Source: an uncultured Erysipelotrichaceae bacterium (lineage in GTDB: Bacteria > Bacillota_I > Bacilli_A > RF39 > UBA660). Taken from it: a DNA stretch of 64,000 nucleotides. The DNA lies in contig CADCJQ010000010.1 in assembly GCA_902801795.1 (NCBI GenBank), positions 2,358 through 66,357 of the forward strand, given 5' to 3'. Below the pieces are notes generated by a model. That model was given only the letters and a program-made list of their open reading frames with translations, did not search any database and was not told the origin of the DNA. Shown here piece after piece: positions 44,582 through 64,000 of the stretch. Every line of letters starts with the position of its first letter. The stretch's first letter is position 1. Made by a program: the position numbers and the translations under genes.

Positions 44582-44626
44582 AATCACCATTAAAAGTATA
44601 ACATAAGATAAAATCTTATGCAATAA

Positions 44627-46204
44627 CTATTTTCCTTCTAAAATATCCTTTGCTTTTAATATAAAATTTATATCATCAAAATTAATATTAATATCATTCA
44701 TATAATAATAATATACAATATTATCAATAACTTTAATAAAATTATCAATATTTCCTTCTTCCAAATAATCTAAATTAATATTGAATCCTAATAATGTATA
44801 TTTATCAACAACAATTGAATTTAATTTTTCTAAATCACTATATATATCATTATTAATTAATGTAACATATGGACTATAAATTAATTTATTAATTTCTTCA
44901 ATAATATCATCAGTATTAATTTCTATTTGATGCTTATCTGACATTCTTTTTAAGAATAAATAACTACTAACACCAAGTTCTAAATATAATGACAAACTAC
45001 TATTCTCATTAATACTATTATATATTCGATCTTTTATGATATCCAAATCGTATTCATTATACAAATTCAATAAATCATTTAATAAAACATCAGATTTAAT
45101 AAAAAATTCACTACAATCACTATCACTATTTTTACTCAATATTTTTAAAGCCTTTGAATTATTTTTCTTAATTTCATTTGTTATTTTATCAATATCTTTA
45201 AATTTATTTTTCAAAATATTTTTATAATCATTTTTATTATTATATAATTCATGACATTCATCTATTAAATATCTATACTTACTAATTATTTGATATTCCA
45301 TAAGAGAATATCTTAAATTTATAAACATTCCTTTTTTATCATCAACAATAGAACTTTCAGTATAATCATTAATAATTTTATCTATCTTACTAGGATCAAA
45401 GTCTTTTATATCAAACTCCTTATTAAGAAATAGATCATAATACCTTTTCTTAGACTTATTTATTAAATTATCATAACTAATTACTTTACTTTGATATTCA
45501 TTTTTATATCTATCAAATGAATCATCCACATGTTTATTTAAAAATTTAAATAATCCTTTATTATTTTTATTTTCACTATATTTAGAAAATTTAATTTCCT
45601 TTTGTTTATTTATATAATTATCAAAATATTTACTATTTTTAAAGTATAAATCATAAAAATTGACAACAATATATTTTAATATATTAGGACACTTCCAATA
45701 TATTTTTTCAAAAAATCCATGAATTTTATCAACATTTTTTTCATTTAATAAAAAATCTATATATTGACTTGCATAAAAATTTAAATAAAAGGATTTTCCA
45801 TTAACAGGAGTTCCTACATTTTTAAATATTTCAATAATTTTTAAAATATTTTCATTAATAATATCAAGATTTTCATTTTCATAAGAATTAATAACATATA
45901 TCATTTTATCTAGTCCTAATATTTCCATCGGAGATTTAAACCTATTAAAATAACAAAAATCACTTAATAACATCTTACCATCATCTATTATTTTTTCTTC
46001 TTTTATATCGCATATATTATTATATCTATTTTTTATTTCTTCCAAAACATTTTGATAAATTGACTGATATTCAACAATTAAAGAAGATACTTTCTCATAA
46101 TATATTTTACGATTTTTTAAATTATTTTGTGGTAACACACCTAAAATTTCTTTATCATTTTGTATTTTGGTTTTTACATCATCTAACATTTTATTCACCA
46201 TCAT
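44627..46204 (-). CDS. Hypothetical protein
   Basis: 525-aa Lys/Asn-rich ORF within the operon; no motif recognised. Confidence 0.7.
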   Translation of the reverse strand: MMVNKMLDDVKTKIQNDKEILGVLPQNNLKNRKIYYEKVSSLIVEYQSIYQNVLEEIKNRYNNICDIKEEKIIDDGKMLLSDFCYFNRFKSPMEILGLDKMIYVINSYENENLDIINENILKIIEIFKNVGTPVNGKSFYLNFYASQYIDFLLNEKNVDKIHGFFEKIYWKCPNILKYIVVNFYDLYFKNSKYFDNYINKQKEIKFSKYSENKNNKGLFKFLNKHVDDSFDRYKNEYQSKVISYDNLINKSKKRYYDLFLNKEFDIKDFDPSKIDKIINDYTESSIVDDKKGMFINLRYSLMEYQIISKYRYLIDECHELYNNKNDYKNILKNKFKDIDKITNEIKKNNSKALKILSKNSDSDCSEFFIKSDVLLNDLLNLYNEYDLDIIKDRIYNSINENSSLSLYLELGVSSYLFLKRMSDKHQIEINTDDIIEEINKLIYSPYVTLINNDIYSDLEKLNSIVVDKYTLLGFNINLDYLEEGNIDNFIKVIDNIVYYYYMNDININFDDINFILKAKDILEGK

Positions 46205-46395: not shown

Positions 46396-49300
46396 TTACT
46401 TAATAACAAAATATTTATAAATATTTCCTACATTAACATCGCCATCATACAGATATATAACTAACTTATATGTTCCGGTTATCAAATTATCTTTTAAAAT
46501 ATATTGATTATTGACATTTGATCCTGGATTAGTAAAGAATTTATATACATTTTCATCACTAGTATTATTAAATGTTCCTTCTAAATAATCTTTAATATCA
46601 ACAAGTTCATATGATAAATCGTAAACATTATTATAAGTTCTTCTAAATAAAGCGATTCGAAGATTTGGATTAACTAAACTAGATGAATATAATATATTAA
46701 AATTAAACTGATTATTGTCATTTAAATTATGACTTGTTTCATGATCAATAATTAAATATTCATCATCTAGTACAATATCTAAACCATAATTTTTTTCCAT
46801 TATTCTAAAAGAAACATCGCATTCATCCGAAGAATCAATTCCATAGTATATACCATCTGGCGAATAGAATGATTCTACCTTAAGGGTATAATTGCCACCC
46901 GATAAATTACCATCAGTTGTATCAATAATAATCGAAGAATAAACATTAGCAACTTTTTCAGCTAAATTAATTCTTACTGTTCCATCACTTCTTGGATAAT
47001 GAGTTATTCCATTATATATAAAGGATACTCCCATAAGGTCTATTCCATTAACTTGATTATTATTTTCATCAAATATTGTTAATTTAATACCCAATTTATT
47101 ATCATAATAAGTTGTATCAAGAATATTATTGTTACTATTATCTTTTTCAAGTTCAAATGATGTTGTAACTCTTAAAGTTGTATCATTTCCAACATGAATA
47201 ACATTATCACTTAGAGTAGCAGAAACATCAATAACACCATCAGAATCATAATATAAATCATATTTCATACTATCATGTTGTGTACCTAAAACAGAATAAA
47301 TAGTTTGTTCGGTAGATGTACGTATTTCCATAAGTAATGATGTTTCAAGATAATTACTAGCGATTTCAGCATCACAAAAATCAACAATAAAGATAAATTC
47401 TTCCACAGCCATTTTATTAGTTTGATTATAATAAATATTTTTCAGTGTTTCTTCATCATATGTATTATTAACACTAGAACTTCCCATTTTAATAAATTTA
47501 CTTAAATCATACGAGTAAGTTAAATATAAATTATAATTATTAATAATATCTATATTATCATTAGCATTTGTTATGTAATAATAATACTCTGGACTAGAAC
47601 CACTAGCAAAATCTATCATAGTAATTTTAGTATTAACTGGTAATAACTTATCTGATACTAAAGAATGATGATATCCATTACGATATATACTTGTATCAGA
47701 ATTAACATACAAAGCATAATAAGCACTTAAACTACTTTTTGAAGTAATTCTGGTTGGGCTTGATGAGAAAAATTCATATTGCCTTCCTGGAGTCATCGCT
47801 GCTTCATAAAAATCACCTTGATATATCGCTCTTGATAAATTAACCACTATATCAATACGAGTTGTTTCTTTTTCCAAATCATTAATAGGTGTTATCGCAA
47901 GTAATTTAATTGTAACATAACCTAAATTTCCATTAGTAGCCAAATTCTTAGAATGATATAAGTAAAACAATAAACTAGGAGCCATTGAGGAGTTTTCCGT
48001 ATAATATGTCGTTGTACCAGATATATTATTATCACTTTCAGTTAAAAATTCAGTTGATCCTAAAGTAATCCATCCTTCTGTACCAGGTCTAATTGATAAT
48101 CCAAGTCTATTATCAGCATCATCTGAATTATTGGCAATTCTTGGAATACTATTAGGAGCTACCAACGAAACATCACTATCAAGATTTTCATATTGAAATC
48201 CTACAACAGTAAAATATGTATTAGCCGTTGTATAGTCAATTAATGGAAGTTCATATGTTCCCAAAGTAGAATATTTTGATGCAACAAGATCAACTTCATA
48301 TGACGTAACAGATGTACCAATTATCCACATATAATAACTTGAATCTTCTGGTGTAGGAACAATATATTTAACTTTTAAAGTATTTCCTTCACCTTCTTCA
48401 TCAGAAACAAAATTTGAATAGAACCCATCAACTTCAATATTATGATTATCTTCATGTAATCCTAAAACATAAGTTCCACCAGAAAAATAATATATATCAT
48501 TATTATTAGCCGTATCACCATAATTATAATCAGTATCATACATGGCAACAACAATTTCCCCAGTTCTTTCTTTCTTATACATTCCCAAGAAAGTCATACC
48601 ATCAACTTCACCATATGAAGTAATGTTTTGATTAGTAGCAATATTTAATATTTTATCTTCAAGCATATAAATACGATTATTAACGTTCTTTGTTACTGTT
48701 TCGTTATCCTCATCAATGGTAACTGTTGCTAATGTATTATTATCTTTCAAACTTCTGAATTTTTTCAACAAGTTAGCTCCATTTTGAAAATATAAAGTAC
48801 TATTATTAACTAGATCTAATTCATCAATACGACTTACACTAAATAAAACACTTGAATATTCATTAGTTCTATCCGTCGCTCCTGATAACTCTATATTAGA
48901 ATTATTTAATACAACTAAATCTGCTCTTTGAATAGATATATTCTCTTTAATATCACTCTCTGTTCCATAATTATTAATATATATTCTACTATAACCAGTA
49001 GTACTTGAAGCATTACCGCTTCCAAAGATGGAACCACCAATATCAAAATTATTATGTGTTGCTCCATCAATGTTGATTATAATACCTACTGTAACACTTA
49101 TAAATGAATAATCATAGTCTTCTGATCCACTAGCATTAGCTTCTCCACCACCAAAAACAGTTCCAGCAATATTAATATCAGATTTAACTAAATCATTAAT
49201 ATTTACTTCATTTCCTATATTAGCAACAACTGAATTATATCCTATATTAACCATTGTATCGCCATATAAAACTGAAGTATTAGCACCACCATAGACATTG

Positions 49301-52300
49301 CCACCAATATTACCACCAATTATATTAACTCTTCCTTTAGAATTATTACTTGTAAGAATTCCTGTATAAGCAGCATTACCTCCACCAAATACATGATGAG
49401 TAATTGTACTATTTCCCTCAACAAGAATATTTGTGTTTGTATGAACTGTTGCTGTAACACCATTTCCACCGGCATAGGCACTGCCTCCTATCGTAGTACC
49501 ATTGATAGTAACATCCGTACTTCCTAAAACCGCTGCATTATTACCTCCACCAAATACATTATTACTAATTGTACCCGTAGATGTTAAAACAGTTGTATTA
49601 CCTGTAACATTGGCATTGTTTCCACCACCATATATATTAGTAACGGTTGCAGTTGTGTAATTAACATTAGTATTAGTTGTTGTACCTCCAGCATTATTTC
49701 CACCATATATATCAGTATAAGTTCCACCTGTTACAATAACATTTGATGTTCCTACAACACCGCTTGTATCACTTCCACCAAAAACATAATTTGCAACACC
49801 ACTTGATAGATTAACATTTGTTGTAGTACAAGACGCTTTCTTTCCTCCACCAAAGATATATGAAGTTGGATTATTAGAGGTTGATTTAAAGTTTACATTT
49901 GACGTTCCATGATTAGCTTCACAACCACCACCATAGATATTACTTACTATTCCATTATTTATATCAACATTACTTACTGTTGTTGTTCCACCAGCATTAT
50001 TTCCACCATAAACGGTTGTAATTGTTCCACCATCTATATCAACATTACTAACTGCTGTTGTTCCACCAACATTATTTCCACCAAATACATTCGTAATTGT
50101 TCCATTATTTATATCAACATTACTTACAGGAACTGTTCCACTTATATTACTTCCACCAAATACATTTGTAATAGTTCCATTTTGAACATCAACATTTGTT
50201 GAAACTGTAACATCAGCACTTTCACCACCACCATAGACATTGGTAATTGAAGAATTTACTAATACATTAGTAGTTCCTGTACTAGCTAAACATCCTCCAC
50301 CATATGCTGTCGTTACATTTCCACCATTTATTGTTACATTAGAAACCGTTGTCGTTCCACCAACATTATTTCCACCATATACTTTATTTGCAACACCACT
50401 TGTTACTATTACATTACTTTCTGGAACAACACCACTTGTATTACTTCCACCAAAAACATTGGTTGTAGTACTACCATTCAAATTAACATTTGTATTTGTT
50501 ACAATACCCGCTTTATTACCGCCACCATATACATCTATTATATTACCACTATTTAAATTAACATTGGTAATATCCGTAGAGGCTTCATTGCCACCACCAT
50601 AAATAGTACCTACTGTAGATCCATTAGCTAAAATATTGCTATTTGTTGTTGTTCCACCAATATTATTACCACCATAAACAGTAGTTGCATTTCCACCTGT
50701 TAAAGTAATGTTAGTTGTTAATACATCACCTGATTCATTACTTCCTCCATATATATTAGTAAAATTACCACCTTGTAAATATACATTAGTTGTCGTTGCT
50801 CCACTCTTATTGCTTCCTCCAAAGACATCTATGGCTTGACCACCTTGTAAATATACATTAGTAGTAGGTACTGACGCTAAATTTCCACCTCCAAATACTT
50901 TCGTAATTGAAGAATTATTTTTAACATAAACTCTAACATCACTGCTTAAAGAATCGGCTTCATTACCACCACCATAGACATTCCCTATAGTAGCAGCATT
51001 AGTATATCCTCCTGTATTAACCGTAATATTTCCATAAGATCCTCCACCAGAATTATTACCACCATAAAAACTATTAGAGTAACTTCCTTCTTTAATATTT
51101 AAAGTACAACTTCCCATGTTATTACCTAATGTATTATCAAGAGAATTTCCCATACTTCCACAATAAGTATCTCCTTGTAAAGAAATTGTTGGCGTACTTG
51201 ATGTATCATCAATATCAAAATTAATATTACCGATAACGGTTCCTAAAGCACTACCACCATATGAATCTCCTTTAATAATTACCGATTTATTATCTTGTAT
51301 TGATACATTTATATTTCCAGCAACATTTGTATCTTCTCCATAACCTCCACCAAAAAGACTACTATTATTATTATCAGAATCATAATTTATTGTACCACCT
51401 AAAATATTTATTGTAATATCACCAGCAACATCACCAATTTCACATGATCCACCATAAAGTGCCTTTTTTATTTCTCCGCCTGTCATTGTGATATTAACAT
51501 CACCGTTTACTCTATTAGAGGCAGTTGCTACATAATTAGTTGCTACACTTTGTGTCTTAAAAGATAAATTATTTATAGTTGTATTGGTATTTGTTAATAC
51601 CCAATTGTTATTAAACCCTAAATAAAAAGTATCCGTTAATTCATTATGATTAACATTATATCTTGCAAAATAAAAGTTATTAGCATTAGAATTATTAGTT
51701 GTTGTTGTCCAACCATTATTATATGTTAAATAATAAGTTCTAAAAAATGTACTATAGTAGAAATTTCTTCCATCACTTTGCCATGTATTAGGATTGCTTC
51801 CTAATGTTAAATTATAACTAAAAAACCCACTAGATGCCATATAAAGATATAAACCGGTTGCAACATTTCTTATGGTATATTCTCCATCACTCTCCTCAAT
51901 AACCCATAGATTATTTGATGGAATAGTACTACTACTTAGAGTTGTATTAGAAACACTATTATTAGATACAGATATTGAATTAGCAGTATTTGAATTACTA
52001 TTAGTTATCAAGATTTCTTCACCTGTAATCATAGAAGTACTAAAATTATAAGAAACAGTATAATTATTATAGTAACTTGCTTGTTTATAAAAAGTTTTAT
52101 TATTAGAATCATATTGCCAAACAGTAGGATTATTATCCAATTTTAAAGTTGGATTATTTAAACTAGTTTCAGAATTTAAATATTGATTACTACTAGCATT
52201 CTTAATAGTATAACCATCATTTTCATTAGTAATTATCCAAAAACTTCTCAAAGAAGATGATGAATTATTTTGTAAAACTACATTATTAATATTATTATTG

Positions 52301-55300
52301 CTAGGAGAAGACAACGCATTTAATGTCGTACCATTTTCTTTAACAATTAAATATCCATTACCTGATACTATATTATCATGATTAACATATGATGTAACTT
52401 GTCCCGTTCCTGATTGAATATCTACTTCACCAATTCCATTTTTATTAGCACCACCATATACATTACCTTCAATAGTACCACCATCAATTTTTAAAGTAAC
52501 ATCATCAGTTACATTTCCATAATTTCCACCACCGTACACACTACCATATATTTTAGCATCGTTAGGAACATCATTATTACCATTTCCTGCTCCTAACACA
52601 GAACCATAACTAACACCATATAATTCACCACTACCAATTGTTCCAATTTTAGCTTTACCACCTATATGAACATTTGTACTTCCTTGCATTTTTCCAGATT
52701 GTTGTCCGGTAGAATCAGTAGCAAAAACACCATTACTTCCACCAGAAACACTATATTCTATATCTCCACCAGTAACAGAAATATATCTATTACCATAAGT
52801 TGTAGATACACCAGCGCCACCTACTATATTAGTAACCTTACCTGCTTTAACATATATCTTGGTAGCAACACTATCTTGGTAGCTTGAGTAAAGACGAAGA
52901 CCGCCTACAATATTAGAAACATATCCCCCTTCCATAACCAATACCCTAGGTGAAATATCAGTCGTAGAACTAGTTGCATTTACTGTAAGACCGCCAACAT
53001 ATATACCGGAATAAGCACGATTTTCATCAGTTGGATTATCATTAAAATACTTATATCCAATATTTCCACTTTTTACATTAATTAAATAAGCAGGTTCTGA
53101 AGAACTAGTCTTACCAACAATTCCGTAATTATTTGAACTTCCTGCACGATAATAAATTTGTAAATGATCATTCGTATTGGAAACTCGATCATAATCATTT
53201 CCTAAAACAAATGTCATTTTGCCATAATAATTAACGGCATTATTGGAACTATAATTACCATCATTAGCAATACGAACACCCATAATAGATGAATATCTTC
53301 CAGTTTCAATAACAAAACGATAATCATTATTATGACTATTACTACTTCCTAAAGAACTAGAATCACTTCCACCATAAGCAATACCAAAAATAGATGATGA
53401 ATTATCAGCCCATGAAGTAGGATTCATCCCTCTTCCAATTCTAACATTATTATAATTACCTTCTAATACGGCATATGTTTCACTATAATCAGTTGTTGTT
53501 GTTCCATTTGTTACCGCATTATATCCACTTGCAGCAATTGATAAATATTCAAGTTGTAAATCATTATAAGCTGAAACAAAAGCATAACCATAATCAACAT
53601 CATCTGTTAAATCTAAAGTTACATCATTTCTATAATCAACATGATTATATAAACTAGTTATTGTTACTGCCACATTATTACTACTTGTATAATTATTATT
53701 TGATGTCATATTACCAGTATTAGTTGTTCTTATTTCCCTTTCAACGGTATAAGTAGCAAAATTAAATCTATTATTAGAATCAACATCTCTTATCTCAAAA
53801 CCATTATTATATCTTAAATAATAATTAACTATATTACTAACATAATTGGTATCAACTGTTTTTAAAGATATTGTTGTATTATTTCCAATAGTATCAACAA
53901 GACCCCATTCGTTATTACTAAAAGATAGATAAACATTAGTATTTTGATAACTACTATTTGTAACCCTAGATGTAAAATATAATTCTGTCGCTTGATTTGC
54001 ATTGGTTGTTGTTGACCATGCACCATTATTATATCTTAAATAATATCTAGTATTAGTATTTCTTTGATAATATAAATAATGATTACTAGAATTATACATC
54101 CAAACTCTTTGTGTATTACTAGTTGATAATGTACCATTATTACTACTATATAAATACCTATTATTTCTAACATTTCTTACTGTATAACCACTACCGTAAT
54201 TATTTAATAACCACTGACTAGCATCAGTTGGTTCAGTATCGGTCATATCAAAATAAGTTAGAGCATTACCATTTACCGATAAAGCAATTAAATTACTATC
54301 ATTACCATTAGTTATATAATAATTACTTCCACTATTGATGTAATTAGCATGATTATATGAATATGTTATATAATTAATTAAAGTTTGTCGATAAAATGCA
54401 TTATTTACATTATCATAATTCCATACCGAAGGATTATTAACAAGTGTTAAATCCGCTCCATTATTACCATTATCAACACTTGATAAATATCTATTATTAT
54501 TATTTTTAAAAGTATATCCTCCGTTTTCATTGGTAACAGTCCATAAAGCACTTGCATCATAATTTCTATTATCAAAACTAACATTAGATAAATTATTATT
54601 TAAAGTATTACTTTCAGATGTATTGGTAACAAGATATTTTTCACCACTAACAATATTATCTACATCATTATAAGTATATTCATTATATGATAAATCAACT
54701 ACAGTATAAAATTTTCTACTCGTACTATCATAATCCCATAAAGTAGCATTATTACTCATATTTAAAGTTACATTATTACCATTTACTACAAAAGATAAAT
54801 ATCTATTTGTATCATAATTTCTAATAGAATATAAACCATTACTTTCCGTAATAATCCATTTAGTATCATCCGAAGGTTCAACCATAGTAGATAGTATAGT
54901 ATAATCAACACCATTATCATCTGTTAAAGCATACCTTGTATTACCAACCATATATTCAATAATATGAGGATTATTATCAAAAGTCGTTTTATCATTATAA
55001 TTAACAGTAATATTATATGTATGAGTGATGCTCCTAGAATAATTAGGACTCATTGACAAATCACCAATTAATACAATAATATTTCTTTCACGATCATTTA
55101 TATCAGTACTATTATTTTGTAAAAGACTAAAGGCTCTTCCCCAAGATCCAACGGCATCATCCGGTGTACTACCATCAAAATTATCATCACCCAATGTTCC
55201 TTTTAGATATACAACATGAGCATTAATCCAATTAGCATAAATATTAACAGTTTGATTATTACCAGATTTTGTAACCTTAATTGTTTGTACATTTGTCTTA

Positions 55301-55788
55301 TTATCTTTAGTAATAATACCATCAGTACTTGTCCAACCACCAAAAGCTTTATTATCTGGTCTATCACTAAAAGGATTATCTATAAGATCAATTGAAATTT
55401 CATTATTAACAACAGGGTAATATTTATAATATGTAAATTTATTTTGTCTTTCAGTAAGTGAAACATATCCGCAAACAGCTGGTGTACAACTATTAACATC
55501 ACTACCATAACCATGATATACAACAGTTACACTTGCTAAATTGCTATCACTATATGTCACACTATTAGAATTAATATCATCAACATAATTCATTCCCAAA
55601 TAATAGTAATAATCACTTTCCAAATCATTAACATAAACTGTATCACCATCAATATGAGAACGTGTATCAGTAACATCCTCAGAAAATGTTTTAAATAAAT
55701 TAATTGACAAAAAAAGAAGAATAGTAATAACGAAAAAAACTACTATTAAACGATTAAATAAATATTTATTATTAATAAGTTTTTTCAT
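46396..55788 (-). CDS. Giant 3,130-aa secreted repeat protein (putative adhesin)
   Basis: N-terminal TM helix; ricin-B-like motifs (N.YL...W.YD); more than 25 [NT][VI][YF]GG[GSN]N repeats; no LPXTG. Confidence 0.85.
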   Translation of the reverse strand: MKKLINNKYLFNRLIVVFFVITILLFLSINLFKTFSEDVTDTRSHIDGDTVYVNDLESDYYYYLGMNYVDDINSNSVTYSDSNLASVTVVYHGYGSDVNSCTPAVCGYVSLTERQNKFTYYKYYPVVNNEISIDLIDNPFSDRPDNKAFGGWTSTDGIITKDNKTNVQTIKVTKSGNNQTVNIYANWINAHVVYLKGTLGDDNFDGSTPDDAVGSWGRAFSLLQNNSTDINDRERNIIVLIGDLSMSPNYSRSITHTYNITVNYNDKTTFDNNPHIIEYMVGNTRYALTDDNGVDYTILSTMVEPSDDTKWIITESNGLYSIRNYDTNRYLSFVVNGNNVTLNMSNNATLWDYDSTSRKFYTVVDLSYNEYTYNDVDNIVSGEKYLVTNTSESNTLNNNLSNVSFDNRNYDASALWTVTNENGGYTFKNNNNRYLSSVDNGNNGADLTLVNNPSVWNYDNVNNAFYRQTLINYITYSYNHANYINSGSNYYITNGNDSNLIALSVNGNALTYFDMTDTEPTDASQWLLNNYGSGYTVRNVRNNRYLYSSNNGTLSTSNTQRVWMYNSSNHYLYYQRNTNTRYYLRYNNGAWSTTTNANQATELYFTSRVTNSSYQNTNVYLSFSNNEWGLVDTIGNNTTISLKTVDTNYVSNIVNYYLRYNNGFEIRDVDSNNRFNFATYTVEREIRTTNTGNMTSNNNYTSSNNVAVTITSLYNHVDYRNDVTLDLTDDVDYGYAFVSAYNDLQLEYLSIAASGYNAVTNGTTTTDYSETYAVLEGNYNNVRIGRGMNPTSWADNSSSIFGIAYGGSDSSSLGSSNSHNNDYRFVIETGRYSSIMGVRIANDGNYSSNNAVNYYGKMTFVLGNDYDRVSNTNDHLQIYYRAGSSNNYGIVGKTSSSEPAYLINVKSGNIGYKYFNDNPTDENRAYSGIYVGGLTVNATSSTTDISPRVLVMEGGYVSNIVGGLRLYSSYQDSVATKIYVKAGKVTNIVGGAGVSTTYGNRYISVTGGDIEYSVSGGSNGVFATDSTGQQSGKMQGSTNVHIGGKAKIGTIGSGELYGVSYGSVLGAGNGNNDVPNDAKIYGSVYGGGNYGNVTDDVTLKIDGGTIEGNVYGGANKNGIGEVDIQSGTGQVTSYVNHDNIVSGNGYLIVKENGTTLNALSSPSNNNINNVVLQNNSSSSLRSFWIITNENDGYTIKNASSNQYLNSETSLNNPTLKLDNNPTVWQYDSNNKTFYKQASYYNNYTVSYNFSTSMITGEEILITNSNSNTANSISVSNNSVSNTTLSSSTIPSNNLWVIEESDGEYTIRNVATGLYLYMASSGFFSYNLTLGSNPNTWQSDGRNFYYSTFFRTYYLTYNNGWTTTTNNSNANNFYFARYNVNHNELTDTFYLGFNNNWVLTNTNTTINNLSFKTQSVATNYVATASNRVNGDVNITMTGGEIKKALYGGSCEIGDVAGDITINILGGTINYDSDNNNSSLFGGGYGEDTNVAGNINVSIQDNKSVIIKGDSYGGSALGTVIGNINFDIDDTSSTPTISLQGDTYCGSMGNSLDNTLGNNMGSCTLNIKEGSYSNSFYGGNNSGGGSYGNITVNTGGYTNAATIGNVYGGGNEADSLSSDVRVYVKNNSSITKVFGGGNLASVPTTNVYLQGGQAIDVFGGSNKSGATTTNVYLQGGNFTNIYGGSNESGDVLTTNITLTGGNATTVYGGNNIGGTTTNSNILANGSTVGTIYGGGNEASTDITNVNLNSGNIIDVYGGGNKAGIVTNTNVNLNGSTTTNVFGGSNTSGVVPESNVIVTSGVANKVYGGNNVGGTTTVSNVTINGGNVTTAYGGGCLASTGTTNVLVNSSITNVYGGGESADVTVSTNVDVQNGTITNVFGGSNISGTVPVSNVDINNGTITNVFGGNNVGGTTAVSNVDIDGGTITTVYGGNNAGGTTTVSNVDINNGIVSNIYGGGCEANHGTSNVNFKSTSNNPTSYIFGGGKKASCTTTNVNLSSGVANYVFGGSDTSGVVGTSNVIVTGGTYTDIYGGNNAGGTTTNTNVNYTTATVTNIYGGGNNANVTGNTTVLTSTGTISNNVFGGGNNAAVLGSTDVTINGTTIGGSAYAGGNGVTATVHTNTNILVEGNSTITHHVFGGGNAAYTGILTSNNSKGRVNIIGGNIGGNVYGGANTSVLYGDTMVNIGYNSVVANIGNEVNINDLVKSDINIAGTVFGGGEANASGSEDYDYSFISVTVGIIINIDGATHNNFDIGGSIFGSGNASSTTGYSRIYINNYGTESDIKENISIQRADLVVLNNSNIELSGATDRTNEYSSVLFSVSRIDELDLVNNSTLYFQNGANLLKKFRSLKDNNTLATVTIDEDNETVTKNVNNRIYMLEDKILNIATNQNITSYGEVDGMTFLGMYKKERTGEIVVAMYDTDYNYGDTANNNDIYYFSGGTYVLGLHEDNHNIEVDGFYSNFVSDEEGEGNTLKVKYIVPTPEDSSYYMWIIGTSVTSYEVDLVASKYSTLGTYELPLIDYTTANTYFTVVGFQYENLDSDVSLVAPNSIPRIANNSDDADNRLGLSIRPGTEGWITLGSTEFLTESDNNISGTTTYYTENSSMAPSLLFYLYHSKNLATNGNLGYVTIKLLAITPINDLEKETTRIDIVVNLSRAIYQGDFYEAAMTPGRQYEFFSSSPTRITSKSSLSAYYALYVNSDTSIYRNGYHHSLVSDKLLPVNTKITMIDFASGSSPEYYYYITNANDNIDIINNYNLYLTYSYDLSKFIKMGSSSVNNTYDEETLKNIYYNQTNKMAVEEFIFIVDFCDAEIASNYLETSLLMEIRTSTEQTIYSVLGTQHDSMKYDLYYDSDGVIDVSATLSDNVIHVGNDTTLRVTTSFELEKDNSNNNILDTTYYDNKLGIKLTIFDENNNQVNGIDLMGVSFIYNGITHYPRSDGTVRINLAEKVANVYSSIIIDTTDGNLSGGNYTLKVESFYSPDGIYYGIDSSDECDVSFRIMEKNYGLDIVLDDEYLIIDHETSHNLNDNNQFNFNILYSSSLVNPNLRIALFRRTYNNVYDLSYELVDIKDYLEGTFNNTSDENVYKFFTNPGSNVNNQYILKDNLITGTYKLVIYLYDGDVNVGNIYKYFVIK

Positions 55789-55812: not shown

Positions 55813-56811
55813 TTATGGATTTAAGGTAAACTGTAAATTATATCTTATGTCACCAAAAGATGCATTATTTTCACTATCAACATCTTGTCCTTCTAACCAC
55901 ATATATATTTTTATTTTTGTAATACCTTTTTTTATATCAAATAGTTCTTTATTTTCATTATTTACACTTTTTGTATAAACCTTTACATTTACAGGTTTAA
56001 AATAATTTGGGTAATATGTACTATTAGCTTTTTTTATATTAATATTTTGAGAAAGCAATATTGGATTAATTAAACCATCATAAAGTATTATATCAGCATT
56101 CTCTTCTGTAGTTATGATATTAAATACAGATAAAGCATTGGATACACCACTTCTTGTATGAACATCATAATTAGGTTCCCAAATATAGACATCATCAATA
56201 CTTCCACCATTTAAATTTTGAACAGTATTAATATTAGTTTCTTTAGGAACATTTCCTTCAATAACAAAAGCAACTCGCGCGGAATTTTCAATACCAACAC
56301 TTTCTTCACCAAGATACGTTACAAAAGATTCGTTACTTAAATATAATTTTCTATCAACACTAGTTCGAACAAAGATATCAAAAGAAATAAAATTTCCTAG
56401 ACAATCTTCACCACTACATCTAGTTTCAACTTGTCTTTTGCTAGATAATATATATTCTCCACTATCAACATTTTCCAAGTTACCATAATACATATATAAA
56501 TAACCATTACCATCAGTTATACCTGCAGTTGACATTGGCATAAATTTAGATGGTACTTGATTAGTACATGTACTATATGTTCTATAAGCTTCAATAATAT
56601 CACTTACAGATAATACACTTTTCCAATCTAAAGCATCGGTAGATATTTCTATACCACCATCAGTTTCAACATGAACATCAACAAATTCTATATCAGTAAT
56701 TCTATTAGTAGAAAACCATGCATAAGTAGATGTACCTAAAAAAATCCCTACAACAAGAAACCATAACAATAAAAACCAAAATTTTCTTGTTCTCTTTTTA
56801 TCTTTTCTCAT
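55813..56811 (-). CDS. TasA/camelysin-like secreted subunit with SipW-type signal
   Basis: STYAWF after TM helix; paralog of 40563..41783. Confidence 0.72.
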   Translation of the reverse strand: MRKDKKRTRKFWFLLLWFLVVGIFLGTSTYAWFSTNRITDIEFVDVHVETDGGIEISTDALDWKSVLSVSDIIEAYRTYSTCTNQVPSKFMPMSTAGITDGNGYLYMYYGNLENVDSGEYILSSKRQVETRCSGEDCLGNFISFDIFVRTSVDRKLYLSNESFVTYLGEESVGIENSARVAFVIEGNVPKETNINTVQNLNGGSIDDVYIWEPNYDVHTRSGVSNALSVFNIITTEENADIILYDGLINPILLSQNINIKKANSTYYPNYFKPVNVKVYTKSVNNENKELFDIKKGITKIKIYMWLEGQDVDSENNASFGDIRYNLQFTLNP

Positions 56812-56819
56812 TATAGCAC

Positions 56820-57602
56820 CTAATCTTCCGTGACATTTAATTCAGTAGATACATCAGCATTAATAGTATCTTTACTATTTTCAATAAAATGTCTTGTTTC
56901 TTCATCAAAATGTTCATCAGTTATACTCATACTAATTTTTATTTCCCCACCAAGAAGTTTATCAACACATTCAGGATCATCACCTTCAAGCCAAATAACA
57001 ACCGTTATCTTATCAACCTCTCCTGGTTTTAATCTAGGTCTATTTTCTAAAACAGGAATATCATTTTTATAAAAGACTTTAGTACCTTTTTCTGCTTCTC
57101 CTGTTAATGGATTAGCCTTTGCATAAACTGTTTCGGTATCATTTAAAACAATCATAATTCTAATCGCTTCATCAACATTTTTTATAACATCTTCAATCAT
57201 AACTTTATACCAATAATCTTGAATTTCAGTACCTTGATTATCTACATAAAAAGTATAAGCAATATAATTATCACCATTATGACTACCACCAGTAAAATCT
57301 TTAATATTACTAGGCAGCCAATCAATAGAAATATTATCCATAAATTTAAGTTCTTCAGCATATAACTTTCTTACATGTTTATGAACTTCTTTTTCAGTAT
57401 AAATAGCAAGACCAGCCTCAAGTCTAAAATTAGGATCCAATGTAACAGTAAAACTACCTCCATTGTATGCAAGACTTAAAACAACAAATAAACTCATCAA
57501 AAAAATAATTAAAATAACAATTATTATGCGATATTTTTTAGCTCTTGCTTTTCTATTTTTTATTTTATCCGCTGTATAAACAACATACGCTTCTTTTGCC
57601 AT
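56820..57602 (-). CDS. Membrane-anchored camelysin-like protein
   Basis: N-terminal TM helix; C-terminal VVIWLEGDDPECVDKLLGG resembles the subunit C-termini. Confidence 0.65.
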   Translation of the reverse strand: MAKEAYVVYTADKIKNRKARAKKYRIIIVILIIFLMSLFVVLSLAYNGGSFTVTLDPNFRLEAGLAIYTEKEVHKHVRKLYAEELKFMDNISIDWLPSNIKDFTGGSHNGDNYIAYTFYVDNQGTEIQDYWYKVMIEDVIKNVDEAIRIMIVLNDTETVYAKANPLTGEAEKGTKVFYKNDIPVLENRPRLKPGEVDKITVVIWLEGDDPECVDKLLGGEIKISMSITDEHFDEETRHFIENSKDTINADVSTELNVTED

Positions 57603-57806: not shown

Positions 57807-58415
57807 ATGGTATTCTACAATCAGGAGGAGAATATGAGATACAATAGAAAAATAATACTTTTAATGCTATGTGTTTCAATATTATTATGTATTCTAACAA
57901 TGCAAGAAACATATGCTAAATATTCAACCTCTAATAACGCAACAAGTAATATGTCAATCGCAAGATGGCGAATTCTTGTTAATAACTTTGACATTAGAAA
58001 TGATTTATCAGCATCAACAGTTATTCAACCAGTATTTAGTGGAAATAACAATATTAGTGATGGATATATCGCTCCAACCGCTAATGGTTATTTTGATATT
58101 TTAATTGATGCAACAGAAACTGATGTATCATTTAATTACCAAATATCTCTTAATCAAAACTCAGATAATGAAGTTATTGATTTAGCAATTACAGGTTATT
58201 CAATAAATAATGGAGCAACCCAAACATATAATAACAATATTACTGGTTCTATAAATAAAAATGATGTAAATAAAACAATGCAAATTCGTGTGTTTGTAAC
58301 ATGGAATGATGGTGAAGGCTCTGTGATGAACAATCAAGATGATACCAACACAACAGGCGAAAACGCTACTGCAAAATTAGATGTTAATTTAAATTTCATT
58401 CAACAATCTAACTAA
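57807..58415 (+). CDS. Secreted fibre-subunit-like protein (opposite strand)
   Basis: AGGAGG RBS; ETYAKY after TM helix; IARWRILVN, IAPTANGYF. Confidence 0.72.
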   Translation: MVFYNQEENMRYNRKIILLMLCVSILLCILTMQETYAKYSTSNNATSNMSIARWRILVNNFDIRNDLSASTVIQPVFSGNNNISDGYIAPTANGYFDILIDATETDVSFNYQISLNQNSDNEVIDLAITGYSINNGATQTYNNNITGSINKNDVNKTMQIRVFVTWNDGEGSVMNNQDDTNTTGENATAKLDVNLNFIQQSN

Positions 58416-58442: not shown

Positions 58443-59057
58443 TTAATTTGCTTGATCAATATGAATTGTTAAGTTAATAGAAATACTTGGAGAATTGGGA
58501 TGAGTATGATTATAGGTATAAGCATTTTCTCCCCACAAAGTATCTACACTATCTAGATTTTCCTCAAAATTCCAAATTACATCAACAGAAAAAGTTGAAG
58601 ATGAAAAAGGTACAAGAATTGTATTATTTACACCTATTAATACTTTAAAAGGGAAATCATTTTCTAACATATCTAAAATATCATCACTAGAATTATTAGC
58701 ATCTACTGTATATGTAGTATCAAGAATTCTTACAGAATTCATTTCAAAACTTACAACAGCATTAGTATCACCATTATTCGTAATAACAACTTCATCATGA
58801 TAATTAGTCATTCCAGGATAAATATCATTAATATCAAATGTTAAAGATTGAGTAACATCCTCTTCATTTTGCAAAAAAGTAATATTCCACGCTCTAACTT
58901 TGGCTCCCATTTCAGTATCAACATGATTTGAAAATACAAACCACGCATAAGTATTAAAAGAAAGAAGAACAATAAGAATAAACAATGTCTTTAATCCTAA
59001 AGTTTTTCTTAATCTATTTAATACAATCTTTATTTCTTTTTTTTTCACATATATCAA
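58443..59057 (-). CDS. Secreted fibre-subunit-like protein
   Basis: NTYAWF; IYPG and ITNNGD camelysin-like motifs. Confidence 0.7.
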   Translation of the reverse strand: MIYVKKKEIKIVLNRLRKTLGLKTLFILIVLLSFNTYAWFVFSNHVDTEMGAKVRAWNITFLQNEEDVTQSLTFDINDIYPGMTNYHDEVVITNNGDTNAVVSFEMNSVRILDTTYTVDANNSSDDILDMLENDFPFKVLIGVNNTILVPFSSSTFSVDVIWNFEENLDSVDTLWGENAYTYNHTHPNSPSISINLTIHIDQAN

Positions 59058-59626
59058 CTCTCACTTTTTTCTTTATCAATTTCATTTTTTATACTAATAA
59101 CTTCATAAAAAACAAAAATAATAAAAGGAACAAAAATAACAAAGAAGAAACCATAAGTATTATTAATAATATGACTTACAATACTTAGTAATTTTAACTT
59201 AAAAGCATATTTACCAAGAATTTGATTACTATTAATTTCTTTATCCTCTATTTGATTAGCATCACCTTTTGTTATAAAATATAAACCATTATCTCTTTTT
59301 TCTTTTTTTATTATTCTATGGGTAACAATTTTCCCTGAAAAACTACCTTCTGTACCATTATATACAACAATATCACCAATATTCAAACTTTCAGGATCAA
59401 CCTTTTTGGATAATATCATATCTTTAACTTTTAATGTAGGATCCATACTTCCAGTAACAACAGTATAAACTCCATATCCACCTAAATTTATACTATTAGA
59501 AGATACTTTTTGTACAACAATAACTAAAAGCAAACAAAAAACAATTACTGTAGCTATATACTTTAATATTTTCATTGAAATTCTCAACGCCTTATTATTC
59601 TCCACTTTTTCTATCAAATTCTTCAT
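59054..59626 (-). CDS. Signal peptidase I, SipW/ER-type (S26)
   Basis: TGSMDP, VTHRII, ITKGDAN; start after GGAGG. Confidence 0.93.
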   Translation of the reverse strand: MKNLIEKVENNKALRISMKILKYIATVIVFCLLLVIVVQKVSSNSINLGGYGVYTVVTGSMDPTLKVKDMILSKKVDPESLNIGDIVVYNGTEGSFSGKIVTHRIIKKEKRDNGLYFITKGDANQIEDKEINSNQILGKYAFKLKLLSIVSHIINNTYGFFFVIFVPFIIFVFYEVISIKNEIDKEKSES

Positions 59627-60770
59627 CTTTATCCTCCAAATTATCATCTATTTTTAAATGAATAATTTTATTCATATATTTATTAATTGCATTATGAAAT
59701 AATTCTTTAATCTTATTATCACTTGCAACATATTTATTTTTAATTACAACAAATTGTTTAGCAACAATTTCACTTAATTGTTCTTCTGATATTTGATTAT
59801 CAATATCAATTATTTTTTCAACAATATTACCAACAAGTCTTTCTTTTATTTCCTCTTTAGAAACAGATGAATCTTTAAATTTATTTTCATCCAAAGTATT
59901 AAGAACTAAATAATCAAGTAGAAAACTTTCATCATAATATTGTTTTAACTTACTATTATCATAATAATCTTTATTTTCTTTATCCTCTTTATTCGTTTCA
60001 TCACTAAAATGTTCTTGTAAATAATTCCATAACTTTACTGCATATTGAAAATTAACATTCTTTAAAATTACATTAGTCTTTTTAATGGGAGATGTTACTA
60101 AAGCAATATGTAATTTATGAATCATCTTATATACTTCAGTACTTTTAAGATCTCTTATTCGCATTTCCACTTTACTAATTCTATCCTCAATACTTTGACC
60201 ATCTTCCATTATATTATTGGTCGTATCAATTAAACTATCAATCGAAAAGTTCATTTTAACATTTTCTCTACCAATTTTTGAAACAGCATTATATTCCACT
60301 TTTTTTATACATTTATTTTTATTCGCAGATACAATTTTTTGTTTTTTACGACTAATAAATAATGTTAAATTTTCAATTAAACTATATATAAAACGATTTT
60401 CATAGGTATTAAAACTTTCCTCTTTATTAATGTTTAATATTTTTGAAGGCTTAACATCACCTGTTTTACGATCATAATCTTGAATTAAATTAGTATTTCT
60501 TGATAAATGCTTAATACTATCAACTGTTATTCTTCTTGCAAGTTCAATTTTAACAACATCTTCGTCATTGATAATAAAACGATTAGGATTTCTTAAAATA
60601 TTATCTATATACACAATTGTATCTTCAATAATATCTAACCATTCATAATTAGCATTTACTCGGTCAATATTAAGTCCTACATGAACTTTAGAATCAACGT
60701 TATTTGAAAATTTATTTATGATAGAGCTATCAGTTTTATTATATAAATCAATAATATTTTCATCTTGCAT
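59595..60770 (-). CDS. DUF2357-like (McrC-associated) protein
   Basis: PSKILN...FNTYENRFIYSL motif typical of DUF2357. Confidence 0.75.
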   Translation of the reverse strand: MQDENIIDLYNKTDSSIINKFSNNVDSKVHVGLNIDRVNANYEWLDIIEDTIVYIDNILRNPNRFIINDEDVVKIELARRITVDSIKHLSRNTNLIQDYDRKTGDVKPSKILNINKEESFNTYENRFIYSLIENLTLFISRKKQKIVSANKNKCIKKVEYNAVSKIGRENVKMNFSIDSLIDTTNNIMEDGQSIEDRISKVEMRIRDLKSTEVYKMIHKLHIALVTSPIKKTNVILKNVNFQYAVKLWNYLQEHFSDETNKEDKENKDYYDNSKLKQYYDESFLLDYLVLNTLDENKFKDSSVSKEEIKERLVGNIVEKIIDIDNQISEEQLSEIVAKQFVVIKNKYVASDNKIKELFHNAINKYMNKIIHLKIDDNLEDKDEEFDRKSGE

Positions 60771-60785
60771 AAATACTACCTCCTA

Positions 60786-62306
60786 TTATGATAATTTCTT
60801 AAGTCTTAAAACATACTCCTCACATTCCTTCATTTTACCTTTACCAAATGTTTTATCTAAAAATTCGACAAATCCATCTATTTCATCACGAATATAAGAA
60901 ACATTTAATTGTTCAAATTTACGAAGAATTTTTCGAGCAATAAAATAATCAACACCATCTATTTCTTCCCCACCACATGCAACATATATTGGCACAAATT
61001 TTTTCATGTGCATAACAATACGGTTACCAAAAGCAATACGGAAATGTTGAATAACATAATTATCCATTTCCTCAATCTTATCAAGCATCTCTTTTGTCAT
61101 AGGATGTTCTTGCATACCTTTTTGAAACAATGAATCCAAATATGAATAATTAATATCTTGTGCTTCCGTATCAATAGGCTCAAATACTTCACCTTTATCA
61201 TTAATATCAATTGGCATCGCACGGTCATAAACTTTATCAGTAACCATAAAAGTTGAGTCATCGTTATTAATTGTACCAATATACCACATATTAGGTGGTA
61301 TTTTAAGTTTTCCATCCATTAATTTTTTAGGATCATTAGGCCAAGAACTAGATACAAGTTCTACAATCCATTCATCCTTATTAGGCATTTCAAGAATAGA
61401 TAACATTTCCGCAAAATAATATTCAACTCTGGAAATATTCATCTCATCTAGAATAACGGTATAAACATCATCCGTATAACCTGCTAGATACATTTCTTTT
61501 AAAACTTCTGTTTCATTAAACTTTTTAGTAAACTCATTAAAATATCCAAATAACTCAGTACGATCTCTCCATGATGGTTGAACAGAAGCAACACAAGAAT
61601 CATGTTTTAAAAATTTTCCCCAAGCATAAGCAAGAGATGTTTTACCAGTACCAGATATACCTTGTAAAATAACAAGTTTAGTACTAGCCAAAGATGAAAT
61701 AAATAATCTTATCATTTCTGTTTTATAATAAAGTCTTAATTTTGAAGCAGCAAAATTACGAAATAATTCCACTAATTCTTCCAAAGTAAAAGAATTATTA
61801 TAATTTTGTACTTTATAACCGGCCATTAATTCATCAATATTATTAAGTTTTGCAAAACGAATACCATCAGCATTTTGATTTTCATTACTTTCACTAGTAT
61901 CAACAGTAGCATCTTCATCAGGTTTAAGTCCAAGTTGAGATACTTTCATCGCTAATATATCTTGTTTTTCTTTCATTAGTACTTGAATATCTTTATTAAG
62001 GGTAGCAATTTCTTCTAACATTGATTCTTGCTCTACCAAGGTTTTTCTAAAACGAATATATTTTCTAATTAAATAAAAGATTAAAAATCCAATTGATCCC
62101 AGTAATATTAAAAGTATTAAAACAGCAATGACAACAAAAATCCATTCACTACCATTAAAATCATCATGATAAAAAGAAACAATTTCTGCATAATCAGAAA
62201 CATTAAAGATTTCAATTATCCCAGAATAAAAACCTTTAATTATTGTCCAAAATCCGCCAAAAAACTGTCTTAAAAATTCAAATAAAAATCGAAAAAACGT
62301 CTGCAT
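60786..62306 (-). CDS. Membrane-anchored McrB-like AAA+ NTPase
   Basis: N-terminal TM helix plus coiled coil; GISGTGKTS, LDEMNISRVEYYF, GTINNDDS, DRA. Confidence 0.85.
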   Translation of the reverse strand: MQTFFRFLFEFLRQFFGGFWTIIKGFYSGIIEIFNVSDYAEIVSFYHDDFNGSEWIFVVIAVLILLILLGSIGFLIFYLIRKYIRFRKTLVEQESMLEEIATLNKDIQVLMKEKQDILAMKVSQLGLKPDEDATVDTSESNENQNADGIRFAKLNNIDELMAGYKVQNYNNSFTLEELVELFRNFAASKLRLYYKTEMIRLFISSLASTKLVILQGISGTGKTSLAYAWGKFLKHDSCVASVQPSWRDRTELFGYFNEFTKKFNETEVLKEMYLAGYTDDVYTVILDEMNISRVEYYFAEMLSILEMPNKDEWIVELVSSSWPNDPKKLMDGKLKIPPNMWYIGTINNDDSTFMVTDKVYDRAMPIDINDKGEVFEPIDTEAQDINYSYLDSLFQKGMQEHPMTKEMLDKIEEMDNYVIQHFRIAFGNRIVMHMKKFVPIYVACGGEEIDGVDYFIARKILRKFEQLNVSYIRDEIDGFVEFLDKTFGKGKMKECEEYVLRLKKLS

Positions 62307-62308
62307 AA

Positions 62309-63298
62309 CTATACTCCAATCAATTCAGATATTATAACATTGTCTATATTTTTTAACTTTGATATTTTGGATATTTTTCCATTCAAAATAATAAATTCAA
62401 AAACTTCTAATAACTGAATATTTCCACTAAAATCATCATTTATAATGACTGCAAATTTATACCCATTCCTGATATATTCATAAACAACATCTTTATTATT
62501 CATAAAATCATCATATAATATTTCCATTATAACTCTATCTTTTAAAAGATCTAAATCAATTATTTTAAATAATTGATTACATTTATTTTTTTTAGATAAC
62601 AAATTTACATCAAATGTAACAATATATTTTTGATAATATACAAAATTATTAATATCTTCTAAAATTTTAATACTTATTAAAGTATACAAAACCAATAATT
62701 TATCTTCATTTACTGTACCACTTTCATATACTTTCTTTACAGCTGTAGCACTAAATAATTCTGGTATTTTAATATTACTAACAAGTTTAGTATAAAAAGC
62801 ATTTTTAATATTAGTTGTTTTTATATCTAATTCAAAATCTTTACATGAACATTTTTTTATAAATTTCTCTTTTGTTTTTTGATTATCTTTAATTATAGGA
62901 AACAAAAGAATTTTTAAGGCATCTGGCTTTTCATTTCTTTTATTTACTTTATCCTCTAATTTTAACAATAATTTTAATATTCTTTTATCATTTAAGGCTT
63001 TCTCAAAACAAAGAATATATTTTAAAATCCATAAACAATTATTTATTTCTTCTTTAATATTATCCGTTTTATAATTTTCTTCATCTATATAGTCGTAAGT
63101 TGCTTTTTTTACACCATTCATAATATTATTTATAATGTTTTTTCCTTCACCATTGTAACCATATCTTAAATCAACATAAGAACTAACCATTACATTAGAA
63201 ATATCTTTTGATGTTTTACCATTAAAAATCAATTTAAAATAACCAAGAATATTTTTTCGATCATATTCTATATAATCCTTAACAATATTACGACTCAT
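62309..63298 (-). CDS. Hypothetical protein with possible degenerate EAL-like C-terminal domain
   Basis: RVIMEI...GYKFAVIINDDF...FEFIIL echoes EAL domain strands. Confidence 0.5.
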   Translation of the reverse strand: MSRNIVKDYIEYDRKNILGYFKLIFNGKTSKDISNVMVSSYVDLRYGYNGEGKNIINNIMNGVKKATYDYIDEENYKTDNIKEEINNCLWILKYILCFEKALNDKRILKLLLKLEDKVNKRNEKPDALKILLFPIIKDNQKTKEKFIKKCSCKDFELDIKTTNIKNAFYTKLVSNIKIPELFSATAVKKVYESGTVNEDKLLVLYTLISIKILEDINNFVYYQKYIVTFDVNLLSKKNKCNQLFKIIDLDLLKDRVIMEILYDDFMNNKDVVYEYIRNGYKFAVIINDDFSGNIQLLEVFEFIILNGKISKISKLKNIDNVIISELIGV

Positions 63299-63312: not shown

Positions 63313-64000
63313 TTAAGATGCTGTAAAACTAATTATAGGTGTATTTGTACCATAAGGATACGTATAATTCATACTGGCATCTTTTTTATAAAATCTTATC
63401 ATTTCACTCGATATTGGATCAACCTTAAAAGTTATGCTATTAACATACTGATATCCATCAATTTCTACTTCTGTATGAGATATAGCATCTTGGTAAAATT
63501 CACTAGTTAAATCCAAAAGTACAACATTTGGATTAAAAGATAAAGTTATTAAGGCTGATGCATAATTTGCTTTCTCAGCATCTGACAAATTTCGATATGC
63601 AGAACTTGAAATTTCCTCTCCAACAGAGTGATTTCCATATGCCCTAATTACCTTGTAAAAATCAAAAGTATTAGTAAGAGAAAAATTCAAATAAGGCCTA
63701 TTCTCTTCATCCATTATTTCATATGACAAACCAGGAATCCCAACATTTAATTGAATTCTACCACTTATCGTTTGTACATATGGACTAACCGAAGAAGAAG
63801 TAACATTTAACCATACAGAATCACCCTCTTGTAATGCAACAACAGGATGTATATTTATTGTAAAATAATCACGATTAGTTCTTGAATCAATAACCCCATT
63901 ATTTTTACTTGCCGTACAAGAAACATTACTAGAGCATGTATAACTTAAATTATATGAAATATCACTTTTAGATACGACAAGATTATTTTTTATACTATTC
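63313..64000 (-). CDS. C-terminal part of a large beta-rich protein (runs off window end)
   Basis: The frame of ORF 63313..63729 stays open to 63999 (NSIKNNLVVSKSD...GIPGLSYEIM...). Confidence 0.8.
   Translation of the reverse strand, partial: NSIKNNLVVSKSDISYNLSYTCSSNVSCTASKNNGVIDSRTNRDYFTINIHPVVALQEGDSVWLNVTSSSVSPYVQTISGRIQLNVGIPGLSYEIMDEENRPYLNFSLTNTFDFYKVIRAYGNHSVGEEISSSAYRNLSDAEKANYASALITLSFNPNVVLLDLTSEFYQDAISHTEVEIDGYQYVNSITFKVDPISSEMIRFYKKDASMNYTYPYGTNTPIISFTAS

Follow-up and report, generated by a model that had tools for sequence, protein, structure and literature searches.

McrBC of Escherichia coli is a Type IV restriction system in which the DUF2357 domain of McrC activates the McrB ring. 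A sequence-only reading of a 64,000-nucleotide stretch from an uncultured Erysipelotrichaceae bacterium (assembly GCA_902801795.1, contig CADCJQ010000010.1, positions 2,358 to 66,357 of the forward strand; the whole stretch is called the window here) described two adjacent genes whose products resemble this pair, an AAA+ protein and a DUF2357-like partner, inside an apparent operon for surface fibres. It proposed that the two proteins form a membrane-anchored motor co-opted for fibre assembly, secretion or regulation, in a role that would be previously undescribed. The claim of novelty did not hold, as the architecture had already been named CoCoPALM by Bell, Sahakyan, Makarova, Wolf and Koonin (eLife 2024, PMC11090510, section 7; preprint 2023). 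In that work, CoCoPALM systems are NxD-type McrB GTPases that are fused to an FtsB-like transmembrane (TM) and coiled-coil domain and are associated with signal peptidases. They are described in a single paragraph that defers their analysis to a later paper, and HHpred was used by the authors; no later paper using the name was found in a literature search. The NxD variant, usually followed by D or E, defines the branch of McrB GTPases that holds both CoCoNuT and CoCoPALM systems, and the DUF2357 model is treated as the N-terminal domain of McrC (PMC11090510). The rest of the proposal stood to the extent that the pair was found to be a membrane-anchored, nuclease-less McrBC derivative belonging to the fibre operon.

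Four features that mark the class were found at this locus, namely a McrB-family GTPase domain, the NxD signature, an adjacent DUF2357 homologue of McrC and an association with the signal peptidase family. As in CoCoPALM, the GTPase has an N-terminal TM helix, followed here by a heptad-like stretch that may be a coiled-coil stalk; the McrC homologue has a helical extension in its model, and signal peptidase genes lie alongside. No difference contradicting membership was detected, although hmmscan did not recover the FtsB homology published for the N-terminus. Judged by these features, the arrangement belongs to a class already named in 2023/24, and the pair is very probably a CoCoPALM system that works as part of a fibre cluster.

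Comparison with E. coli McrBC (PDB 6ut6, 6hz4 and 7vsr) showed that both have a GTPase core of the AAA_5 type, with the two Walker motifs (A and B), the sensor asparagine and an aligned arginine, while the N-terminal DUF2357 domain of McrC is present in the partner. However, a membrane anchor replaces the DNA-binding N-domain, the signature is NxD and not NxxD, the partner lacks a PD-(D/E)xK site and the operon is one of secreted proteins. The sequence-only reading had seen no methylase nearby, and this absence extended to the whole 71 %-complete assembly, in which the DNA methylase models PF00145, PF02384 and PF01555 had zero matches. CoCoNuT systems and the PADLOC candidate PDC-M26 share the NxD branch, and the AAA+ core matches PDC-M26A. 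In contrast to this locus, CoCoNuTs are soluble and always accompanied by HEPN or other nucleases; here there are none, SipW and secreted proteins are encoded next to the pair, and the GTPase falls in a separate clade.

Both open reading frames of the pair were confirmed (Table 1). The sole significant relatives of the AAA+ protein in the PDB were E. coli McrB entries (phmmer E 7e-4; family profile E 1e-5), and no Pfam model scored above its cut-off. The AAA+ domain spans residues ~145–504 and carries the Walker A motif GISGTGKT and the Walker B motif LDEMN. In an alignment of 19 diverse homologues, with identity down to 32 %, the invariant residues included K222 (Walker A), D287 and E288 (Walker B), N347, D349 and R362; the position after N347-x-D349, residue 350, was D or E, with Q in one homologue. 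Residues 1–140 begin with a hydrophobic segment, continue with the TM helix and the stalk, end in a linker of acidic character, and had no domain match, including none to the modified-DNA-binding domain of McrB. There is one strong hydrophobic TM helix at residues ~56–80 (Kyte–Doolittle 3.2), preceded by an aromatic, amphipathic segment whose equivalent is a second TM helix in other subfamilies. A cluster of basic residues lies between the helix and the heptad-like stretch, and the positive-inside rule would place the AAA+ part, downstream of the helix, in the cytoplasm. The stretch at ~88–122, which is free of Pro and Gly, was the best heptad window of the protein, but its crude score was not above that of shuffled sequences, so that a coiled coil at this position is plausible.

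A tree of AAA+ domains from 130 representatives placed the one- and two-TM proteins, all but one, in a single clade (37 rows; Shimodaira–Hasegawa-like approximate likelihood ratio test support, SH-aLRT, 99), apart from both a clade with four TM helices and the soluble forms, which have 700–800 aa. This topology points to a single origin of the membrane-anchored GTPase clade. The proteins with four N-terminal TM helices are themselves NxD-type McrB-like GTPases of 550–840 aa (P0284–P0382) and formed a separate, well-supported clade.

The partner matches the Pfam model DUF2357 (PF09823) over residues 42–152, with 45.7 bits against a cut-off of 23.3. Its link to McrC is made by this model only, because searches of PDB sequences with the single sequence and with a profile found no McrC match. 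An AlphaFold2 (AF2) model (mean predicted local distance difference test score, pLDDT, 81) has a mixed alpha/beta N-terminal half with long beta-hairpins and an almost all-helical C-terminal half that ends in a helix of ~60 residues at 329–389, which the heptad score does not flag. A Foldseek search of the PDB with this model returned no nuclease, and the best match to any fold had E 0.018 and a TM-score of 0.13. The model and the conservation analysis were built on 56 homologues, in which the family invariants were W44, L89, K110, L112, Y123-E124-N125-R126, Y160, P228, T232, N233 and F241. E124, in the YENR motif, was the only invariant acidic residue, no residue beyond F283 was conserved, and the conserved residues contained neither a D...(D/E)xK constellation nor an R-x4-6-H motif. 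A HEPN domain was considered on the basis of a weak PADLOC HEPN_IX match (E 0.002) and was rejected, as the match sits in the unconserved tail and lacks the R-x4-6-H motif. The partner thus has no PD-(D/E)xK or HEPN nuclease site. The features that the sequence-only reading had assigned to the two proteins were in large part borne out: the N-terminal TM helix in place of a DNA-recognition domain, the DUF2357-like character of the partner and its lack of a nuclease motif were all recovered, while the coiled coil reached only the plausibility noted above.

The window has a G+C content of ~27 % and almost every gene in it lies on the minus strand. The genes of U228, U329, the AAA+ protein, the partner, SipW and T204 follow one another in this order in a tightly packed minus-strand run. 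Stop-to-start gaps are 14 nt between U228 and U329, 2 nt between U329 and the AAA+ gene and 15 nt between the AAA+ and partner genes. The overlap between the partner and signal peptidase genes, also reported in the earlier reading, amounts to 53 nt if counted from the first ATG of SipW and to 32 nt from the ATG at 59626; the latter is the likelier start because a GGAGG ribosome-binding site lies 6 nt upstream of it. The SipW and T204 genes overlap by 4 nt, and ribosome-binding sites of the GGAGG type precede the starts of the AAA+, partner and SipW genes. No terminator-like site was found on the minus strand between 55500 and 64000, and a scan for promoters gave no useful signal, as shuffled sequences contained more sites. 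The peptidase encoded here scored 83 against the Bacillus SipW equivalog model, below the cut-off of 190, and is therefore termed SipW-type and not a SipW orthologue.

To place the pair in a wider context, one genome per species was scanned; at least 593 genomes had a GTPase relative, and the best 80 loci together with seven relatives were used for synteny. Contigs of related loci carry the labels of Bacilli, Tenericutes or Mollicutes metagenome-assembled genomes. The partner was the next gene after the GTPase in 83 of 85 loci, and SipW came directly after the partner in 60 of 82. A SipW-family gene was present in the flanks (within 10 kb) of 75 of 80 loci, rising to 78 of 80 when proteins with the N-terminal signal motif were also counted. 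Proteins of at least 1000 aa, with related N-termini, occurred in 49 of 80 loci. The seven relatives keep the order U329, GTPase, partner, SipW and T204 and have giant proteins nearby; among them the GTPase is the best conserved product of the cluster (57–78 % identity, against 34–56 % for the partner and 23–66 % for the subunits). In most loci the gene immediately upstream of the GTPase is U329, while in most relatives the U228 orthologue lies two genes upstream of it and T204 comes after SipW.

Loci with this gene order span RF39-type Bacilli and Clostridia. In the Clostridia group (Acutalibacteraceae and Ruminococcus sp. CAG:488; loci L068–L071, L074, L079, L081, L082, L087, L090, L091 and L094–L096), SipW is directly upstream of the GTPase, and the partner, at 680–820 aa, is twice the length of the protein described here, with no Pfam match in its extra half. 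It directly precedes a secreted protein of 1900–2600 aa.

Presence and absence of the pair followed the secreted proteins. The GTPase and the T332 subunit family were present in an identical 10 of 41 relatives. Among 301 evenly sampled genomes of the same order, the GTPase was found in 93 (53 of 127 genera) and T332 in 81; both were present in 73, the GTPase only in 20, T332 only in eight and neither in 200 (Fisher P ~1e-41). TM-bearing McrB homologues thus co-occur with SipW (75 of 80 flanks) and with T332 (73 of 301 genomes), and the flanking genes were fibre or housekeeping genes and not those of unlinked defence islands. The two findings that would have refuted the earlier reading, an intact nuclease site in the partner and a pair found mostly in defence islands apart from fibre genes, were both looked for, and neither was obtained. 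Conserved gene order, phyletic co-occurrence and the absence of any nuclease motif or fold place the pair with the fibre operon, and its membership of this cluster, as opposed to a defence island, is strongly supported by these genomic comparisons. Together with U329, the membrane-anchored pair is best explained as an integral, co-inherited part of a SipW-dependent cluster of small-genome gut bacteria that encodes secreted beta-sandwich subunits and a giant adhesin, and as neither a restriction nor a defence cassette.

The cluster extends from ~40563 to beyond the window end and encodes signal-anchored proteins, at least nine in number, in which the hydrophobic helix is followed by a T/S-[FYW]-A-x-[FY] motif that resembles the signal-peptide cleavage region of TasA. 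Neither sequence nor fold confirmed the description of these subunits as TasA-like. When every family member was scanned against Pfam and NCBIfam, the result was only noise, with no match to TasA/camelysin (Peptidase_M73), and profiles of three subunit families found no sequence relatives in the PDB. The AF2 model of T204 (pLDDT 88) is an Ig-like beta-sandwich with weak matches to PapD-, MSP- and ASH-like folds, among which TasA was lacking; the label of TasA homologue was thus dropped, the N-terminal motif being the only resemblance. The T204 family is homologous to that of T202 (hhalign probability 96.9 %). A dedicated SipW-type peptidase encoded with its secreted substrates is also found within the tapA-sipW-tasA operon of Bacillus subtilis and in archaeal bundling pili (PMC9245690, PMC9674648). 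The present cluster differs from the B. subtilis operon in that its subunits are numerous and paralogous, SipW has several paralogues, and a giant adhesin is encoded as well as three cytoplasmic proteins that include a nucleoside triphosphatase (NTPase), and from TasA/camelysin in that its subunits have no detectable homology to them. As in TasA, a T-[FY]-A-x-[FY] motif comes after the N-terminal signal of the substrates. A surface fibre is a reasonable, though putative, identity for the products of the cluster.

U329, the third cytoplasmic protein, had no Pfam or NCBIfam match, 25 members of its family had no Pfam match, and its profile found only triosephosphate isomerase in the PDB (E 0.018). 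In distant relatives, the gene directly upstream of the GTPase encodes a SipW-like peptidase that has two TM helices and carries a full-length U329 at its C-terminus (hidden Markov model E 1e-40 to 1e-51; L015:7460–9628, L016:5194–7698, L017:11656–13668 and L062:7875–9998). These gene fusions link the cytoplasmic module physically to the peptidase. An EAL domain in U329, suggested by a local FAxxLDDF resemblance, was rejected (hhalign against an EAL alignment, probability 1.3 %, E 0.039; Pfam negative). EAL domains were not found in this genus, and the one GGDEF match in the assembly (contig C1:24215–24646) belongs to a protein of ~681 aa that is kept in nearly all relatives and is presumably GdpP-like; classical cyclic di-GMP (c-di-GMP) signalling may be absent from this genus. 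No riboswitch of the c-di-GMP type, nor any other Rfam family, was detected in the cluster or the contig tail. Control of this locus by c-di-GMP is unsupported, because there is no riboswitch, U329 has no significant similarity to EAL, the genus has no EAL domains and the lone GGDEF protein is near-universal.

The GTPase has exchanged its DNA-reading N-domain for a membrane anchor and a short stalk, while the McrC homologue has kept only its N-terminal DUF2357 domain. McrBC and the AAA_5 remodellers of the MoxR type suggest, by analogy, how the pair may work. Six GTPase subunits would form a ring beneath the inner face of the membrane, into which the McrC-N partner would insert to stimulate GTP hydrolysis. 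The energy released could power or control what happens to signal-anchored subunits at SipW, whether by extraction, ordered cleavage or polymerization, and possibly the export of the giant adhesin. A functional parallel is offered by the MoxR-VWA-type AAA_5 pairs, of which RavA/ViaA is one. In the NorQ/NorD pair (PMC9976466), as proposed here, a member of the AAA+ clade works with one dedicated adaptor on protein and not DNA substrates; the adaptor is a VWA protein instead of a DUF2357 protein, and no homology is claimed. A specific motor or gate of this kind is a tentative suggestion. The fuller picture, in which the ring, its activator, U329 and the active and dead SipW proteins make up a GTP-powered machine that extracts signal-anchored subunits and giant adhesins from the membrane, cleaves them and polymerizes them independently of sortases and type IV pili, is possible but rather doubtful; if it held, the motor of a restriction enzyme would have become an engine for filament assembly. 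Taken as a whole, a CoCoPALM system in a fibre cluster together with a motor or gate is the best explanation and a fairly probable one, in a grading that blends the firmer class assignment with the more speculative mechanism.

Several observations weigh against this explanation. TasA fibres of B. subtilis are not known to need a cytoplasmic NTPase, so that a motor is not obviously required. The CoCoPALM class is known from sequence alone, the AAA+ N-terminus had no FtsB or DivIC match (hmmscan against Pfam, E up to 1) and its coiled coil had no statistical support from the crude heptad score. Defence candidates (PADLOC PDC-M26A) are the closest relatives that the GTPase has, and the subunits are without demonstrable homology to TasA, so that the fibre is itself something we infer. 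Of 41 relatives, 25 had SipW-family genes but only 10 had the GTPase; SipW-type peptidases therefore exist without the pair, which marks one particular kind of SipW cluster. Finally, ~20 of the 93 carriers, mostly of one genus, have the pair without T332, sometimes without a nearby SipW and beside cell-division genes. In this subgroup, mostly of one genus (L084:4046–15854, L086, L089:8919–18218 and L092), U329, the GTPase and the partner are followed by a cytoplasmic protein of 416–698 aa, and there is no nearby SipW, while proteins with an ATYAYF motif are in the vicinity. The neighbours are cell-division and wall genes, recognized by eye as mraZ, rsmH, ftsL, a penicillin-binding protein gene, mraY and ftsW. 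This cell-division neighbourhood is curious given the published FtsB-like N-terminus of CoCoPALM.

The pair could instead be a regulator, in which binding and hydrolysis of GTP, and possibly a nucleotide signal sensed by U329, would switch SipW activity or subunit release without mechanical work. Fusion of U329 to a SipW-like peptidase in distant relatives and the presence of active and catalytically dead SipW paralogues side by side in the cluster would both suit such a switch. Against the signalling side of this proposal, no riboswitch was present in the cluster or contig tail, the comparison of U329 with EAL was not significant, the genus has no EAL domain and the only GGDEF match is the conserved protein described above. 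The strict conservation of the AAA+ catalytic residues fits a working NTPase, yet is compatible with a switch. On this evidence a purely regulatory role is unlikely.

A conflict system is less likely than a regulatory switch, and is improbable. It would be a sensor-effector at the membrane that guards a likely phage receptor, namely the fibre or pilus, and responds to phage attack by abortive infection or a block on export. In its favour, the other members of the GTPase's NxD branch, the CoCoNuTs, are predicted defence systems (PMC11090510), and the distribution of the GTPase over genera is patchy (53 of 127). PDC-M26A matches only the AAA+ core of the protein described here (E 1e-32), whereas soluble relatives of 700–800 aa match it over most of their AAA+ part and cover more of it. 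Against this, the pair has no nuclease or other effector domain, the HEPN_IX match being weak and in an unconserved region. Defence genes typically evolve fast, whereas the GTPase gene is better conserved than any other in the cluster, and its presence or absence follows the fibre genes as a unit, with flanks of fibre or housekeeping genes and not defence islands. Chance adjacency, in which an ordinary McrBC-type cassette landed beside a SipW operon, has nothing in its favour beyond the family origin of both proteins, and with reading frames that overlap and a DNA-binding domain and nuclease that are both lost it was refuted by the synteny (same order in 83 of 85 loci over RF39-type Bacilli and Clostridia) and the co-occurrence (P ~1e-41), leaving it a negligible probability.

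If the GTPase of this CoCoPALM system drives or gates fibre assembly, it would clearly exemplify the exaptation of a motor from a defence enzyme for building the cell surface and would represent a new energy-dependent route by which monoderm gut bacteria make surface filaments. Such systems are common, with a presence in 31 % of sampled RF39-type species and a match in at least 593 species genomes, and are probably relevant to the adhesion of abundant uncultured gut commensals. Beyond the published description (PMC11090510), the comparisons add U329 and its fusions to SipW-like peptidases, active plus dead SipW paralogues and giant adhesins as recurrent neighbours. They also add the Clostridia gene order with its double-length McrC homologue, the prevalence in RF39-type bacteria, the apparent single origin of the GTPase clade and the predicted beta-sandwich subunits. 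Coordinates of the cluster genes are collected in Table 1.

Table 1. Genes of the SipW-type cluster and the features assigned to their products (window coordinates)
Feature	Coordinates	Strand	Basis or remark
U228, secreted subunit-like protein, ~307 aa, C-terminal 228 codons in window; signal anchor and TIARY motif	63313..64000	-	Remainder read from contig
U329, 329-aa cytoplasmic protein, conserved third partner	62309..63298	-	Stop codon 2 nt before GTPase start; no TM helix
Predicted membrane-anchored McrB-family NxD-type GTPase, 506 aa	60786..62306	-	PDB match to McrB, motifs, TM helix
McrC-N (DUF2357) partner, 391 aa, no nuclease domain, helical C-terminal half	59595..60770	-	Pfam, AF2 model, conservation
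SipW-type (archaeal/ER-type) signal peptidase I, GSM and HR catalytic motifs	59054..59647	-	TIGR02228 97 bits, cut-off 51.85
T204 secreted subunit, signal anchor, TYAWF motif, Ig-like beta-sandwich	58443..59057	-	AF2 model
T202 secreted subunit, TYAKY motif, opposite strand	57807..58415	+	Paralogue family of T204; synteny
T260 signal-anchored secreted protein	56820..57602	-	Sequence, synteny
T332 secreted subunit, STYAWFS and WLEGQDVD motifs; family used in co-occurrence test	55813..56811	-	Sequence
Giant repeat adhesin, 3130 aa, N-terminal signal anchor, variant motif LFKTFSE	46396..55788	-	Sequence
525-aa cytoplasmic protein of no assigned function, within cluster	44627..46204	-	Sequence
SipW-like pseudo-peptidase without catalytic Ser motif	44033..44623	-	Weak SipW matches; sequence read
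Secreted subunit-like protein, STYGLFE motif	43445..44029	-	Sequence
Second SipW-type peptidase, catalytically intact by motifs, Lys/Glu-rich tail	42623..43408	-	TIGR02228 74 bits
Secreted subunit-like protein, STFSRFE motif	41992..42573	-	Sequence
T332 paralogue, SVYAWFT motif and MWIEGQDVDCEN motif	40563..41783	-	Sequence

Some minor features were also recorded. The Lys/Glu-rich C-terminal tail of the second SipW-type peptidase holds an internal repeat (VLEATQIIDISEIKKATEKNK / VLDATQIIDINEIKKVTEKNK). A fourth SipW-like open reading frame lies past the window end, upstream of the cluster on the minus strand (~64300–64830 in window numbering). Elsewhere in the window, a tmRNA gene was identified at 17199–17539 on the minus strand (Rfam RF00023, 140 bits).

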